A stretch of DNA of 64,000 nucleotides from Malacoraja senta (Eukaryota). The notes below the pieces were generated by a model. It was not told where the DNA came from. It did not search any database and saw only the letters and a list, made by a program, of their open reading frames with translations. Location: positions 26,972,001 through 27,036,000 of the forward strand of contig CM075987.1 of assembly GCA_038087875.1 (NCBI GenBank), read 5' to 3'. Every line of letters starts with the position of its first letter. Position 1 is the stretch's first letter. This document shows, one piece after another, positions 1,060 to 8,469 of the stretch. Made by a program: the position numbers and the translations under genes.

Positions 1060-1223
1060 TGTTACTCCCAAGCCTTTCCTGACGTCCTCTGAGTGAGGGC
1101 TACATGTATATATGTATGTAGTTTGTTTTGTTTGTGCTTTTCTTATAACAAATGTAAAGCACTTTGGCCAACGAGAGTTGTTTTTTAAATGTGCTATATA
1201 AATAAATGTGACTTGACTTGACT
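1060..1223 (+). mobile_element. L2-type LINE 3' tail
   Basis: TGTAAAGCACTTTG..AAATGTGCTATATAAATAAA plus (GACTT)n tail; near-identical copy on minus strand at 54241-54420. Confidence 0.65.
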
Positions 1224-1224
1224 G

Positions 1225-1420
1225 TTCTTCTTCTTTTCGTGTCCATCTTGTTACAAATGTTAGCCTCGCTGTCATCGTCCGTCCTGAAAAGGACCGCGAG
1301 CTTCCGGCGACAATCAGTGGAAGCCATCACTTGTCGCAATAGATGATGGTGGTAGCAGAATTAGCTCAGGATACTTCCAGTTTCCAGCCCCGCGACGTGG
1401 ACGCTTCTGCTATGGGGGCC
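1225..1420 (-). mobile_element. 196-bp non-autonomous retroposon headed by an HDV-like ribozyme (Ingi/Vingi-like, inferred)
   Basis: Flanked by GACTTGACT direct repeats (1215-1223, 1421-1429); 3' end GGACACGAAAAGAAGAAGAA; 5' nucleotide is ribozyme G1. Confidence 0.7.
1353..1420 (-). ncRNA. HDV-like (CPEB3-type) self-cleaving ribozyme
   Basis: Minus strand GGCCCC CA UAGCAGAA GCG UCCACGU CGC GGGGCU GG AAACUGGAAGUAUCCUGAG CUAA UUCUGCUA: P1 6 bp with G1.U, P2 8 bp, P3 GCG/CGC, P1.1 CC/GG, weak P4, J4/2 CUAA with putative catalytic C at 1364. Confidence 0.85.
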
Positions 1421-1922
1421 GACTTGACTATGATTTCACTACAATTGACATTCTTGGGTGTGACCACTAGTTGAATTTGCTACCAATCAGACACATCTTC
1501 AGTTGTGTTGCTCATCGTCACTGGGTGTATCGACAAGACACCCTCAGTCGAGGCAGGCCCACCGCAGGTTGATCAGACCTGGGTGTGTGTCTTATTGTTA
1601 GCCTCTAGATGGTCAAGTGGCAGCCCAGACAGCATCTTTCTGGGCTGCCACATGGCCATCTAGAGTGTCTCCAGCATTTTTATCTATCTTCATCAGATGA
1701 GGAGGTCTCCAATTCCTCAAACTCTCATGGCTTCAGTAAATAAATCACCTTTCCAATTCCAGTAAATCCTCGTTATAATGCGTCGTAGGGAGCGGAATGT
1801 TTCCATGTAGATTACTGTCAGGTGTACCGAGGTACAGTGAAAAGCTCTTGTTGTGTGCGAACCAGACCATGCAATGGTGCCCATTATCGCCGGTTGTCTG
1901 CTATAGAAAGTCATAGAGTAAA

Positions 1923-2251
1923 ACCCCTGTCCCACGGCACGAGTTCATTCCAAGAGTTCTCTCGAGTTTGCCCTGATTCGAACTTAGGAGATTTACGGTA
2001 ATGGCCGCTCGTCGGTACTCGGGGCTCTCGTGGACATTTCTCAACGTGTTGAAAAATCTTCACGAGTCTTCCCGTGCTTACCTGCCGTTAGCGAGTCTTC
2101 CCGAGTACCTGCCGTTAGCGTTACGAGCCGCTAAGAGACGTCCCCGAGCTCCGACGTACCCGCTACGTTCATTCTCCGTGCTTACCACGAGTTTGATTTT
2201 TTTAAAACTCGGGAGAGCTCTTGGAATGAACTCGTACCGTGGGACAGGGCT
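1923..2251. mobile_element. PIF/Harbinger-type MITE
   Basis: ~45-bp TIRs CCCTGTCCCACGGCACGAGTTCATTCCAAGAG.. / ..CTCTTGGAATGAACTCGTACCGTGGGACAGGG; inserted in a CR1 tail; TSD imperfect (TAA/TTG). Confidence 0.7.
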
Positions 2252-2784
2252 TTGAGTGATACAGCGTGGAAACAGGCCCTTCAGCCCAACTTGCCCACAC
2301 AGGACTACATGTCCCAGCTACACCAGTCCCTCCTGCCTGCGTCTGGTCCCATATCCCTCTCAACCTGTCCTATCCATGTACCTGTCTAAATGTTTCTTAA
2401 ACACTGCAATAGTCCCTGCTTCAACTACCTCCTCTGGCAGCTCGTTCCATACACCCTCCACCCAGAAGCCATAACCGAGAAAGGTATTATCTTTCAAGAG
2501 AGAGCTAGATAGGGCTCTTAAAGATAGCGGAGTCAGGGGATATGGGGAGAAGGCAGGAACGGGGTACTGATTGGGGATGATCAGCCATGATCACATTGAA
2601 TGGCGGTGCTGGCTCGAAGGGCTGAATGGCCTACTCCTGCACCTATTGTCTATTGTGTGTGTAGTAGAAACACAAAAGGGCTCGAGGGCCCGAGCTATAG
2701 GGAATGGTTGCACAGGCTAAGACACTAGTCAGTTTGAATCAGTTTAGTATATTGTCGCGGGTTCCGAGCTACAGTGAAAAGTAT

Positions 2785-3195
2785 TCTTTGGAGAGCAGGA
2801 GGATGAGGGGTGATCTTATAGAGGTGTGTAAAATCATGAGGGGAATAGATCAGGTAGATGCACAGAGTCTCTTGCCCAGAGTAGGTGAATCGAGGACAAG
2901 AGGACATAGGTTTAAGGTGAGGTGGGGAGGGAAGTTTTAAGAGGAACCTGAGGGGTAACCTTTTCACACAGAGGGTGGTGGGTGTATGGAACGAGCTGCC
3001 ATAGGAGGTAGTTGAGGCTGGAACTATTATAATGTTTAAGAAACAGTTAGACAGGTACATGGATAGGACAGGTTTGGAGGGATATGGGCCAAACGCGGGC
3101 AGGTGGGACTCGTGCAGCTGGGACATGTTGGCCGGTGAGGGCAAGTTGGGCCGTAGGGCCTGTTTCCACGCTGCATCATTCTATCACTCTATGAC
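2785..3195 (+). mobile_element. CR1 LINE 3' fragment
   Basis: Translates YSLESRRMRGDLIEVCKIMRGIDQVD..RTRGHRFKV, homologous to the C-terminus of ORF 15489-18440, followed by 3' stem-loop tail. Confidence 0.85.
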
Positions 3196-4518
3196 CAAAC
3201 AAAGTGCTGGATGTGTTTTTGATCCTCCAGTGGCTTCTGTGTTGCTCAGGATGCTGCATTGTAGGCGAAAGGAGAAACTTCTGAAAACAGAAGTTGGAAG
3301 GAAAGTTAAGGGAAACTTTGGATCTTATCTTCTCTAAAGCACAAGAGAGACTCCTGGATTATTTAATTAAGATTTTCAAGACTGATGAAACTGTTCTGGA
3401 ATTGTTTGTGGTTTTGAAAGGTTCAATATGCCACAGATAAATGTATCTAGGCGTGGAAGTTTGGTGGAAATGGTTTCCTGAAGATGTCACGAAAGCAGAT
3501 AGCGGGAGTGGAATCCCAAGAAAGGTCTTAGAGAGGGTAATTTTATAAAGTTTCCCAATACTTCGCATTCTGCAGAATTCACACAATCTCATTTTAGGAT
3601 TGCATTACAAGAAGAATTGTGGAGAAAGACATTGTAATTGGAATTGCAGAGAAGATTCTGCCGATGATTATTTCAAAACATGGGAAGAATTAAATAGGAG
3701 CATGATATGATTGAAGTGATGGAATTTAATGAGATTATGAGTAGTTCTCCCAACGCTGCCGCGACCTCCATATGAGGAGTAGGCCGGACGGAGAGCGAGC
3801 GGGGGTATTGCCTGTGAGTTGCCTGTTTCCTTTAGAGGGCGGTGGAGGCTGGTTCTCTGGACACTTTCAAGAGAGAGTTAGATAGAGCTCTTAAAGATAG
3901 CGGAGTTAAGGGATACGGAGAGAAGGCAGGAACGGGGTACTGATTGGGGATGATCAGCCATGATCACATTGAATGGTGGTGCTGGCTCGAAGGGCCGAAT
4001 GGCCTACTCCTGCACCTATTGTCTATTGTCTATTATCATTGTTATATTTTGCATATCTTTCATTCATTGTTCTTTATCTCTACATCACCGTCTATATCTC
4101 TCATTTCCCTTATCCCTAACCAGTCTGAAGAAGGGTCTCGACACGAAACATCGCCTATTCCTTCTCTCCAGAGATGCCGCCTGTCCCGCTGAGTTACTCC
4201 AGCATTTTGTGTCTATCCTCAGGGCATTGCCCTATCTGGGACATATGACAAAAAAAAAAACACTCTTGACCCTTGAATAATCCGGCCTTCAAGGTCGGCT
4301 GCAGGAGGCGCCCGTCCCTGGGTCGGGCGGGCAAGGAGAGGAGAGGAGAGGGACATGGGTCAGTGGGCCGAGCCGGTCGAGGGCCCCTGCAGTAGCCTGC
4401 GGCTCACCTGGTCAAGAGCCAATACATCGAGTGCACGGGCCTGATGGGACTTTTTGTAAATGGCGTCAAAATGTGGCGACTCGTGCATGTGTGAGCTTTG
4501 CAAAATGAATTGTGCAGC

Positions 4519-4840
4519 GGCAACACGGTGGCGCAGCGGTAGAGTAGCTGCCTCACAGCACCAGAGACCCGGGTGCCATCCCCACTACGGGTGCTGTCTG
4601 GACGGAGTTTGTACGTTCTCCCCGTGACCGCGTGGGTTTTCTCTGGGATCTCCAGTTTCCTCCCACACTCCAAAGACGTGTTGGTTTGTAGGTTAATTGG
4701 CTTCGGTAAAATTGTAAATTGTCCCTAGTGTGTATAGGATTGTGCTCATGTACGGGGTGGATGCTGGTCGGTGCAGACTCGACTCAACAGGCCGAAGGGC
4801 CTGTTTCCACACCGTATCTTTAAATTAAACTAAACTAAAC
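4519..4840 (+). mobile_element. tRNA-derived V-SINE (HE1-like)
   Basis: A-box-like GGTGGCGCAGCGG, degenerate B-box, V-domain GGAGTTTGTACGTTCTCCCCGTGAC..GTTTCCTCCCAC, CR1-like 3' stem-loop, (TAAAC)n tail. Confidence 0.85.
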
Positions 4841-4990
4841 ATTGAACGTTGACCATCTTCAGAAGGAGAAGCAATTTTAGGTCCAAGAGGCTTCATTCTG
4901 ATGAAGAGTCCCAGACCTGAAACATTAACTGTGTAGAAGGGAACTGCAGATGCTGGTTTATGCTGAAGATAGACACAGAGTGTTGGAGCA

Positions 4991-5160
4991 ACTCAGCAGG
5001 TCAGGCAGCATCTCTGGAGAAAAAACTCAGCAGGTCAGGCAGCATCTCTGGAGAAAAAACTCAGCAGGTCAGGCAGCATCTCTGGAGAAAAAACTCAGCA
5101 GGTCAGGCAGCATCTCTGGAGAAAAAACTCAGCAGGTCAGGCAGCATCTCCGGAGAGAAA
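4991..5160. repeat. 34-bp tandem repeat x5 within a Penelope terminal repeat
   Basis: ACTCAGCAGGTCAGGCAGCATCTCTGGAGAAAAA starting at 4991, 5025, 5059, 5093, 5127. Confidence 0.9.
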
Positions 5161-6304
5161 AAAGATGCGGGGCGTTTTGAGTCAGAAACCTTCCTTAGAC
5201 TATGAAGAAAGGTTCCGATCCAAAACATCACCCATCATTTCTTTCTCCAAAGATGCTGCCTGACCCACTGAGTTACTCCAGCACTTTGTGTCTATTCCAC
5301 TGGAACATTAACTGTATCTCCTTCCACAGATGCTGTCTGATCTCATGAACGTTTCCAAGTATTTTCTGTTTTTACGTCAGATTTTCAGCATCTGTAGTTT
5401 TTTTGCTTTTTCAGGTAGAAAATAACAGATTGGAATTTCTAAGTTTTCACGACTTAGGCCCAAGCGCCTTCATTCTGACCTGAAACATTAACTGTGTAGA
5501 AACATAGAAACATAGAAAATAGATGCAGGAGGAGGCCATTCGGCCCTTCGAGCCAGCACCGCCATTCATTGTGATCAATGCTGATCGTCCCCAATCAATA
5601 ACCCGTGCCTGCCTTCTCCCCATATCCCTTGATTCCACCAGCCCCCCGTGCTCTATCTAACTCAGATCTAACAAAGGAACTGCAGATGCTGGTTTGTACA
5701 GTAGATAGACACAAAGTGCTGGAGTAACTCAGCGGGTGCAAGGTTGATGTATGGCTGCACCAAAACCTCTCTGGTCATATCAAAATTTATGTAGATATTT
5801 ACACAACGGCTGATATATAGGACAACGTGGTCAAAGTAGCTCACAGTCCTCATCACTTCTCTGGCACTGTAATCACAAATCTTTATCATCAACTTCTGCT
5901 GAACCAACGCTATAAGTTATCATGAAGGTCATGCTGACTTGGAATTATCTCAACAAGGACCTCATTGGCATCATCATCAATCATCCAATCCAGTACGCAT
6001 TAAGTCAAAAGGAGATGCCTATGTCTGTGATGTGATGTTTGGCCAAAAGACAATTAGACAACTCAGGACAAAGTTAGACAAGGGCAAACAATTGTGCAAC
6101 ACAACTTCAACGTCTAAGAAACATTTAGACAATTAGGAGCTAGTCAAAAAATGCTGGAGAAACTCAGCAGGTGAGGCAGCATCTATGGAGAGAAGGAATA
6201 GGCGGCGTTTTGGGTCGAGACCCGCCTTCAGACTGATGTCGGGGGGGGGGGGGGGGGAGGGGGCGTGGAAAAAAAAGTCCCTCAGATTCCTACAAGATCT
6301 TTCC

Positions 6305-6690
6305 TTAGAGGTTGAGCAGACTGGGACTCTATTCCCTGAGAGAAGGGTGATGAGGAGGGATCTTATAGAGGCGTACAAAATCATGAGAGGAATAGATCGG
6401 GTGGGCGCACAGAGTCTCTTGCACAGTGGTAACTTTTTCACACAAAGGGTGGCGGGTGTATGGGACATGCTGCATGAGAAGGTAGTTGATGCTGGGAATA
6501 TTGTAACATTTAATAATCATTTAGACTATAAACTAAACTGAACCGAACTGAAACTGACCTGAACTGGATAGGACAGGTTTAGAGGCTACATGGGCCAAAC
6601 ACAGGCAGGTGGGACTAGTATAGATGGGACATGATGGGCAAGTTGGGCTGAAGGGCCTGTTTTCACACTGTATCACTCCATGCCTATGAC
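6305..6690 (+). mobile_element. CR1 LINE 3' fragment
   Basis: RRVMRRDLIEAYKIMRGIDRVGAQSL..FFTQRVAGVW plus tail. Confidence 0.8.
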
Positions 6691-6995
6691 TCTCTAATAG
6701 CAGCTTACAGTATGTACAACCTGTAATACTCTGATATTGGGAAAAGCCATTAACTTGTTCTGGGAGTTAACATCGTTCCTATGCTTTTTGCTTACAAGCT
6801 AAATTATATTCATAGTTTAGATAGACACAAAAATCTGGAGTAACAGCGGGTCAGTCGGCATCTCTGGAGGAAATAAATAGTTGACTTTCCCGGGTCGAGA
6901 CCCTTCTTCAGACTGAGAGTCTCATATAACGTAAGATAAGTTTCTCATATAATAAGCTGAGCTATGTATAGTTCCCACAACATATATATATATAT

Positions 6996-7027
<32 letters not shown>

Positions 7028-8469
7028 TTCCCACAACATGGTAGGAAGCATCAAAGTGTAGAAACAAGGAACTGCAGATGCTGGTTTACAAAACTAACAC
7101 AGAGTGCTGGAGTAACTCAGCGGGTCAGGCAGCATCTGTGGAGAACATGGATAGGTGACGTTTCACGGAGTGCTGGAGTAACTCAGCGGGTCAGGCAGCA
7201 TCCGTGGAGCGAAGGAAATGGGCAACCTTTCGGGCCGAAACCCTGAAGGAAATAGGCAACGTTTCGGGCCGAAACCCGGAAGGGTTTCGGGACGAAACGT
7301 TGCCTATTTCCTTCGCTCCATAGATGCTGCCGGAACATGGATAGGTGACATTTCACAGAGTGCTGGAGTAACTCAGCGGGTCAGGCAGCATCTGTGGAGA
7401 ACATGGATAGGTGAAGTTTCGGGTCAGGACCCTTCTTTAGACTGATTGTAGAGAGAAAAGAGAAAACTGAAAGAGTGGAGGGGCAGGACAAAGCCAGGCA
7501 AGTAATAGGCTGGCAGATACAAGATGCTGGAGTCACTCTACAGGACGGCAGCATCTCTGGAGAAAAGGAATGGGTGACGTTTCGGCTCGAGACCCTTCTT
7601 CAGACTGGTAATAGGTTGATGTGGTAGAGGGGGGGGGGTTGGAGGAGGGGGGGGGGGGTGCCGCCCCTTCTTAAGTGAAGGAAGTTAGGTCTGTCCTCTG
7701 TATCTCCCCTTGGAGGTCACATTCTCCATGAATATATTGAGGATATTGAAGACGGAGGCTGGCAGGTCTACACCAGTTGGTGCTATGAGCTATGGAAATC
7801 AGCTGCGGCAGTGGATTGAGATGCCCTTCTGAATTTCGACCTTCACAACGTGCAGCAAAACACACTCATGAGCAGAGTATGAATAAGGACACAGCAGATG
7901 ACGTGCGTGGTTGAACTCCGTAACTATTCCATTCCAAGTAATTTCCATCATTTTGTTTTGCGAAATGAAAAAGCAAGTGAAGTCAGGCTCGGCAAGAAGC
8001 AGAGAGAGAGAAAAAACCCTGTCGCTTGGATAAGCTGGCCTGCAAACCTGTCCCTTCATTAAACCCCGGGACTAAATGTAGCGTGTTCTACGGCGTATTC
8101 TCCCCGCAAGTCAACTGTGTGCTAAAGTACATTAGTGACATTACGGAGCACTTGTGTATAATAGACAGATGCCGAATGCATCAGTGTAATGGGGGAAAAT
8201 ATAATTACCACAAAAAGCTTCATCGCAGCAAAGTGGCAGGGAAAGGTTGCAAATAAAACATGTTTTTGTTGATGGCATACCGTCAGAAGCATAATGAATG
8301 CATCCTGCCAAACAAATGCCTGCTTTCCTATCAACTAAATTCCAATTGAGAGTCATAGAGTGATACAGTGCCCTTCGGCCCAACTTGCCCGCACCTGCCA
8401 ACAATGTCCCAGCTACACTAGTCCCACCTTGCCCGCGTTTGGTCCATATCCCTCCAAACCTGTCCTATC

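Follow-up and report, generated by a model that had tools for sequence, protein, structure and literature searches.

A CPEB3-type ribozyme fold predicted at the head of a short retroposon family in Malacoraja senta, and its LINE relatives

The element and its genomic copies

The subject of this analysis is a 196-b repeat copy in a 64,000-nucleotide stretch of the Malacoraja senta genome (GenBank assembly GCA_038087875.1, contig CM075987.1, positions 26,972,001 to 27,036,000 of the forward strand). This whole stretch is referred to as the window, and coordinates are window positions unless another locus is named. The copy lies on the minus strand between two copies of a target-site duplication, and its first 67 bases are predicted to form a hepatitis delta virus (HDV)-like ribozyme of the CPEB3 type. 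It is very likely a non-autonomous, promoterless non-LTR (long terminal repeat) retroposon of a Vingi-like lineage of long interspersed nuclear elements (LINEs). A LINE found in the same genome and carrying the same type of head, described below, is called the co-resident LINE. The features of the element are as follows.

1225..1420, minus strand: whole non-autonomous retroposon copy, 196 b, running from 1420 to 1225
1421..1429, minus strand: upstream target-site duplication, AGTCAAGTC
1215..1223, minus strand: downstream target-site duplication, AGTCAAGTC
1354..1420, minus strand: predicted CPEB3-type HDV-like ribozyme, the first 67 bases, bounded by G1 (1420) and the last base of the P2 3' strand (1354)
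1325..1327, minus strand: ATG in the context GACAAGTGATGG, similar to GACAAATGATG around the start codon of the co-resident LINE
1281..1294, minus strand: hairpin GTCC-TTTTCA-GGAC
1237..1243, minus strand: 3'-terminal box GACACGA, common to the co-resident LINE and distant LINE relatives
1225..1236, minus strand: (AAG)n-type tail, which differs in length from copy to copy

On the minus strand the element starts with GGCCCCCATAGCAG and ends with ACACGAAAAGAAGAAGAA, and the sequence across it reads ...ATCATAGTCAAGTC/GGCCCCCATAGCAGAAGCGTCCACGTCGCGGGGCTGG...GAGCTAATTCTGCTACC...GATGGACACGAAAAGAAGAAGAA/CAGTCAAGTCAAGTCA. It is thus composed of a LINE-type 5' ribozyme, a middle part of about 105 bases, and GACACGA followed by (AAG)n. 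Both duplications (GACTTGACT on the plus strand) sit within an (AGTCA)n run. The sequence statements of an earlier reading of this DNA (the original prediction) concerning the boundaries of the element, its flanks and the coincidence of its first base with ribozyme G1 all check out. Compared with the family majority, the window copy has four differences, including one additional C within the 5' strand of P1 and one additional G near 1293. This private G shifts the short reading frame that had been translated in the original prediction, and most copies have the other frame; the short frame that follows the ATG is not conserved among copies. The "GGAC repeat" described there is the 3' arm of the GTCC/GGAC hairpin.

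Boxes A and B of RNA polymerase III (Pol III) promoters, for which consensuses were supplied by hand rather than by a tool, matched the element with three mismatches each at best, the commonest value in 500 shuffles. This bears out the earlier statement that such boxes are absent. Likewise, no Rfam family of tRNA, 5S, or 7SL RNA matched the element, either in the scan of the window or in a permissive scan of 1150-1500.

The 1.94-Gb assembly that contains the window was searched with the element, giving 2068 first-look candidates; the 40 that were scored were all 95-100% identical over about 190 b. An internal 22-mer, GGACGATGACAGCGAGGCCAAC, occurs 147 times exactly in the genome, and the 22-base core is found a single time in the window and never in 100 shuffles. 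Sixty loci were reduced to 48 distinct copies (L002/L003 and L007/L008, for example, are duplicate loci), with a median divergence from the majority of 2.7% (range, 0 to 12.9), although this sample is biased towards young copies because the 48 are the best-scoring ones. As judged by divergence, the short family is young.

Both ends could be anchored by script in 38 of the 48 distinct copies. All 38 begin with GG(C/T)CC, and copies of the family terminate in ...GGACACGAAAAG(AAG)n. Of these, 27/38 are bounded, directly at the first G and at the (AAG)n tail, by exact duplications with a length of 6 or more, in most cases 9-13 bases, and most of the remaining 11 have imperfect duplications. The upstream flanks are mutually unrelated; the window copy, L002, and L035 entered similar AGTCA-like targets and have nothing further upstream in common. 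None of the 38 copies with an anchored 5' junction continues upstream of the first G with sequence resembling 1421-1665. The element is therefore multi-copy, with a shared start and independent duplications, as the original prediction of a mobile unit beginning at G1 had implied.

The same boundaries appear in sequences from other organisms when these are compared with one copy of the element (L006). For organism E (2974 DNA-type contig records), and for small contig sets from organisms A and B, the covered part is exactly the element. The unrelated loose ends of these contigs start at the first G and at the tail, and in DNA contigs of one other organism those with unrelated flanks accumulate at the first G (64, 77, and 22 contigs at positions 1694-1696 of L006).

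Predicted ribozyme fold and the families that carry it

Across the whole window, a single Rfam family exceeded its cut-off, namely RF00622 (CPEB3_ribozyme) at 1431-1354 on the minus strand, with 36.8 bits against a curated cut-off of 35 bits. A permissive scan of 1150-1500 (E<=10) revealed no second ribozyme family, its sole extra row being a 13.3-bit long noncoding RNA match with an E value of 6. RF00622 was also above cut-off in six of ten other copies searched (35.1-41.6 bits). All HDV elements can be drawn in the window copy as a full double pseudoknot in which the first G takes the predicted cleavage position:

1414..1420, minus strand: P1 5' strand, made up of GGCCCC and one extra C found only in this copy; the element begins with G1 (1420), where cleavage is predicted
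1386..1391, minus strand: P1 3' strand, GGGGCU; the U at 1386 pairs with G1 as a G.U wobble
1405..1411, minus strand: P2 5' strand, AGCAGAA; its pseudoknot partner is UUCUGCU at 1354-1360
1392..1404, minus strand: P3 and its loop L3; GCG at 1404-1402 pairs with CGC at 1394-1392, and L3 is UCCACGU at 1401-1395
1361..1364, minus strand: J4/2, CUAA, with the C at 1364 in the place of the HDV-type catalytic cytosine

From what is known of the HDV-type family, we take the C at 1364 to be the catalytic cytosine. A P1.1 helix is possible by eye between two C at 1400-1399 and GG at 1385-1384. In the majority copies (e.g., L006), P1 has six pairs, consisting of the G1.U34 wobble and five G-C or C-G pairs. 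In alignments made with cmscan and MAFFT, the first G of the element corresponds to the second position of the P1 helix of its relatives, which has seven pairs. The mammalian CPEB3 ribozyme has the same fold and a near-identical core, and the stretch of P2, P3, and L3 matches the RF00622 consensus at 20 of 21 bases. The element differs from RF00622 in its six-pair P1 with flipped pairs, its two-pair P1.1, its P4, and the use of CUAA instead of CGAA.

With RF00622 as the query, 59 candidates were scored in the genome; 51 of these were matches and 39 were above cut-off (best, 64.2 bits), while the same search of 14 control genomes gave none. The best 30 loci (L061-L090) represent five dispersed repeat families, with 12 loci in family A, 3 in B, 5 in C, 4 in D, and 6 in E. 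Family A is the co-resident LINE. It measures 3120 bp from the first G to the tail box and has one open reading frame (ORF) of about 1014 amino acids, in which Exo_endo_phos, Exo_endo_phos_2, and RVT_1 were the sole Pfam families recognized, with no RNase H. Three copies resemble one another at 97-98% and are flanked by duplications of 10-12 bp. The LINE has a very short 3' untranslated region (UTR) with AGACACGAAAAG(AAG)n as its end; this type of LINE tail has 167 exact occurrences in the genome, nearly all of them preceded by the LINE's A. The short element and the LINE have the same GACACGAAAAG(AAG)n ending, which comprises 11 bases and the repeat. At one LINE 5' end (L092, minus strand of the locus), the complete head is preceded by two incomplete tandem copies of the initial ~20 bases of its ribozyme core; these look like template jumping at the end of reverse transcription.

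No endonuclease-reverse transcriptase (RT) ORF was found within 1.5 kb in families B to E, and their common stretches span only ~60-180 b. They are four further short, ribozyme-headed retroposon families of ~95-175 b. In family E, P4 is missing, the 11-12 bp duplications are clean, the start lies one base into the seven-pair register of P1 (L081/L089), and the end is GGACTCGATAAG(AAG)n. Families C (L072/L074/L082) and D (L075/L078) are old and, at ~95 b, contain little beyond the ribozyme and ~25 bases. Both P4 arms of family C (CAGAUUCU and GAAUCUG) are identical to the RF00622 consensus.

Covariation was assessed in an alignment of 19 heads from six families (the short element and A to E), which comprised 17 pairs and 320 cells. 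Pairing was kept in 88.8% of the cells, compared with 36-53% when the partners were slid. Changes on both sides occurred in 8 of the 17 pairs (44 cells), and the covariation score was reached by none of 500 shuffles. The slid control is the fairer of the two comparisons because related rows inflate counts of pairing and covariation. P1 pairs 2-7 were kept across the six families, with changes on both sides; in P2, 94% of the cells paired and four of seven pairs had changed on both sides, and the GCG/CGC pairs of P3 were formed in 93% of the cells. All 19 aligned heads have C-N-A-A before P2, and column 69 of the alignment is at least 90% C. Nested minimum-energy folding of the element recovered P2 and missed P1, and its z-scores carried no information; the failure to find P1 is expected because the structure is a pseudoknot. 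A covariance model built from the 19 heads (R1) scored the window copy at 60.0 bits.

A T stands immediately 5' of the first G in 26 of 38 short-element copies and, by eye, in four of eight heads of the co-resident LINE. A role for this T within the RNA, as the U of a seventh P1 pair (U.G), was considered and rejected, as the T recurs at the 3' duplication. It is attributed to the target because it is repeated at the 3' side wherever duplications are clean, and the strong bias at the last base of the duplication probably reflects a preference in second-strand cleavage.

The size and copy number of the family are like those of a short interspersed nuclear element (SINE), and one might therefore regard it as an ordinary Pol III SINE, or the ribozyme as a chance look-alike inside a repeat. 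Such an explanation is highly improbable. A and B boxes do not exceed chance and tRNA, 5S, and 7SL matches are lacking, and the same fold, with compensatory changes, heads a protein-coding LINE and other families as well.

Distant LINE relatives and the search for a parent

Protein relatives of family A had 45-63% identity, with two partial matches at 84-86%. Their named sources were amphioxus, sea urchins, insects, teleosts, and Anolis, and many of the contigs were 3.0-3.4 kb long; the database entries bear generic names only. A scan of metagenome contigs with the LINE protein gave 80 loci, 19 of which had sequence upstream of the ORF. Three of the loci (L102, L103, and L104) are the same LINE, with an ORF 52% identical to that of the co-resident LINE. 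Its ribozyme is of the element's own subtype (UCCACGU, GG after P1, and CUAA), agreeing at 26/26 core bases and 17/17 3' bases. P1 of L102 has seven pairs, GGGGGCC/GGCCCCU, compared with GGCCCC/GGGGCU in the element; therefore, three G-C pairs have been flipped to C-G on both strands.

Model R1 scored L102-104 at up to 64.6 bits and L115 and L120 weakly (16 bits; E value, ~0.04). Read directly, L120 has the P1 strands GGGGAAG/CTTCCCT and a fully re-paired P2, GGCATCG/CGATGCC, and L115 has the P2 strands GGCATCA/TGATGCC. Both ribozymes adjoin the ORF match on its upstream side. Amino acid identity to the co-resident LINE among metagenome relatives with a 5' ribozyme is 35-56%. In at least 10 metagenome loci, GACACGA is present and leads into a short repeat or A-rich stretch (AAG, ATC/TCA, or ATA). 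As distant LINEs carry both the 5' ribozyme and GACACGA, both termini of the short element correspond to the conserved termini of a LINE clade.

Two further observations were made among these loci. At L117:1-75, a re-paired HDV-like head (P2, GTTGGTA/TGCCAAC) can be seen by eye before a LINE with 37% amino acid identity; it was matched by neither Rfam nor model R1. At L132:509-554, a match resembling the histone 3' stem-loop (26.7 bits; below the cut-off of 34) closely precedes a distant LINE relative's ORF.

The original prediction had the element arise by internal deletion, with an ORF start joined through the GGAC repeat to an ORF end. This origin found no support in the genome. The 3' 65 bases alone retrieved 30 loci, all of them the short element (two 5' truncated and one interrupted), and none of the 147 genomic copies of the 22-mer had a different upstream sequence; the frame, moreover, is another one in most copies. 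The 5' anchor was followed by a different downstream sequence in 24 cases (22 distinct), mostly small deletions. Among them, L094 proved to be a divergent copy from a subfamily, with a duplication of its own; a further four continuations were also odd.

Elsewhere in the window, the flank at 1428-1640 belongs to another repeat of ~215 bp (523 first-look candidates at ~90% identity), which ends in (AGTCA)n. Inside this host repeat of the insertion, an inverted repeat at 1603-1665 forms a hairpin of ~60 b. A long perfect palindrome at 940-1060 (...GGTGACGTTTCGGGTCGAGACCCTTTCGGGTCTCAACCCGAAACGTCACC...) consists of two inverted copies of an abundant short repeat. Pfam recognized no family in eight open frames at 1977-8464, the nearest of which starts ~560 b from the element.

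Class, proposed mechanism, and a possible origin of the CPEB3 ribozyme

Vingi-1 has been described as a compact single-ORF endonuclease LINE without RNase H in a 2026 review (PMC13708176). The co-resident LINE likewise has a compact single ORF with an AP endonuclease and an RT and without RNase H. Further support comes from Repbase Vingi-2_Gav, because its 5' 74 bases are of this ribozyme type and its length of 3128 bp (PMC5786205) is close to the 3120 bp of the LINE. In the supplement of that article, bases 2-74 of Vingi-2_Gav contain CCATAGCAGAAGCGTTCACGTCGCG and ...GCGAATTCTGC, which by eye agree with the element at 25/26 and 10/11 bases. There is thus real support for regarding the co-resident LINE as Vingi-like, an assignment based on architecture and likeness of the 5' end. 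In the portion of the article consulted, Vingi does not appear in the 2018 list by Kojima of clades with ribozymes (PMC5786205).

RTE, Ingi, Vingi, and R2 all have known bipartite ORF-less non-autonomous LINEs, which usually retain the LINE 5' end (PMC5786205). In the sense of that article, the short element has the right kind of 5' end, which is of the type of the co-resident LINE and of the subtype of L102-104. Its 3' end agrees through the last 11 bases, GACACGAAAAG, and (AAG)n only, and no deletion parent was found among exact-word matches and the best 40 hits. The earlier description of a promoterless, SINE-like, bipartite derivative of an Ingi/Vingi-type LINE can accordingly be kept as regards promoterlessness, multiple copies, LINE-type ends, and likeness to Vingi, but not as regards origin by internal deletion. 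The element is of a kind that is already known, and this family is an added member.

We propose that a copy would be passively transcribed within a host transcript. The HDV-type ribozyme would then fold and cut just 5' of its own first G, so that the freed RNA would keep the whole ribozyme; cleavage at this G is predicted because of the fold and the exact common 5' ends. The endonuclease-RT of the co-resident 3.1-kb LINE, or of a close relative, would recognize the 3' box and repeat, nick the target, and reverse-transcribe the RNA to its 5' end, leaving duplications of 9-13 bp. For this last step the duplications, tails, and shared ends are observed, and action in trans is what they suggest. 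Because the ribozyme lies wholly downstream of its cut, full-length daughters would inherit it. The window copy is a slightly damaged daughter.

Several observations weigh against this interpretation. P1 has six pairs in the element, compared with seven in the Rfam model and in the LINE heads. RF00622 was found in only two of the 19 metagenome loci with 5' sequence (L102 and L103; 55.6 bits). The overlap between the element and the co-resident LINE is confined to the ribozyme type, the context of a start codon, and the 11 terminal bases, GACACGAAAAG, with the repeat; alignment of the element body to the LINE gave scores of 25 and 21, which are not significant relative to shuffle means of 20 and 18 (maxima, 39 and 28). 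Exact-word searches and the best 40 hits revealed no autonomous LINE with the element's ribozyme subtype or body in this genome. Finally, in polyA RNA sequencing of organism E, read starts do not pile up at the first G, and nine reads cross it.

The autonomous partner of about 3 kb sharing both ends that had been envisaged earlier is matched by the 3120-bp LINE in ribozyme type and 11-base end, but not in ribozyme subtype or body. The driver could instead be a separate LINE, rare, extinct, or unassembled here, with the element's subtype (UCCACGU and CUAA) and perhaps its body. A LINE of exactly this subtype does exist elsewhere, in L102-104 with their 26/26 core and 17/17 3' bases, and its ORF is only 52% identical to that of the co-resident LINE, to which the element body does not align. 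However, no such LINE was present among the 60 loci, the 147 exact 22-mers, or the 24 anchor hits in the genome, and the co-resident LINE is of the same young age as the element and agrees with it in terminal box, repeat unit, and duplication length. A separate driver is therefore conceivable but rather unlikely.

The RNA data bear on a different alternative. Sequencing runs of several organisms contain parts of the stretch, and no RNA run was among those listed. Raw polyA RNA sequencing reads of the related organism E included 73 on the element (L006), in both directions, showing that copies are passively transcribed in both orientations. These reads are weak evidence on cleavage because of polyA selection, low depth, and an origin mostly from decayed copies. 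The lack of a pile of cleaved ends among them would also fit a first G that is a transcription start, with the first ~70 bases acting as an internal DNA promoter comparable to Pr77 of L1Tc and the fold being secondary or inactive. Indeed, in L1Tc and NARTc the same 77 bases serve both as promoter and as HDV-like ribozyme (PMC3383444, PMC8256844). Selection on a DNA promoter would, however, not maintain the covarying pairs of P1 and P2, and the two roles are mutually compatible. We consider a promoter in place of an active ribozyme improbable, and the ribozyme-headed retroposon of a Vingi-like lineage remains the preferred interpretation.

Known systems resemble the element to different degrees. 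RIME and NARTc, the short companions of trypanosome Ingi and L1Tc, are likewise ORF-less and consist of the first ~77 bases of the LINE, with an HDV-like ribozyme, and a 3' end. Unlike what is seen for the element, they belong to protists, have poly(A) tails and a clear deletion parent, and use the same bases as a promoter (PMC3383444, PMC8256844, PMC5786205). The short internally deleted elements (SIDEs) of R2 also combine a 5' ribozyme and a protein-binding 3' end with noncoding sequence between them, but they are specific to a site in 28S ribosomal DNA, depend on a LINE with a restriction-like endonuclease, and are cotranscribed by Pol I (PMC3414825). RTE and baggins LINEs are, like this lineage, promoterless, compact, and released by a 5' HDV-like ribozyme, and they belong to other clades (PMC6765202, PMC5786205). 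The Vingi clade itself is known for ORF-less derivatives, such as the internal-deletion families of hedgehog Vingi-1_EE, whereas no deletion parent was found here (PMC5786205). The alligator SINE2-1_AMi has the ribozyme piece of Vingi-2_Gav and ends in ...AAGGACACGAAAAAGG, the same terminal box (PMC5786205, supplement). In that SINE a tRNA head precedes the ribozyme piece and the 3' end is labelled "unknown," while in the element the ribozyme itself is the head (PMC5786205).

The CPEB3 ribozyme is a single conserved intronic copy, whereas the ribozymes described here head dispersed, multi-copy retroposons with target duplications. As the heads of this LINE lineage are of the CPEB3 type in sequence and not only in fold, a retroposon origin of the CPEB3 ribozyme is likely and testable. 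Specifically, the mammalian intronic ribozyme probably derives by domestication from the 5' head of a Vingi-type LINE or from one of its ribozyme-headed mini-retroposons. In the literature searched, which did not extend to the main primary papers on either subject, no link between CPEB3 and Vingi and no Vingi ribozyme were found. The sole statement found on the origin of the CPEB3 ribozyme is a general remark on domestication (PMC7761336).

Taken alone, the element is one more ribozyme-headed non-autonomous LINE derivative, and its value lies in what follows from it. Retroposons that, down to ~95 bases, consist of a predicted self-cutting head and a short 3' box offer a compact model of what a LINE requires of its template. 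Vingi elements are being developed as gene insertion tools that keep the native 5' UTR (PMC13708176), and a ribozyme in that UTR would matter for such tools. If the proposed relationship is true, Vingi joins the LINE clades that process their 5' ends by an HDV-like ribozyme, and the families described here, together with the 5' ends of Vingi elements in Repbase, would supply the outgroups said to be missing for the CPEB3 ribozyme. With a retroposon source, the origin of this memory-linked ribozyme would become answerable by genome comparison.

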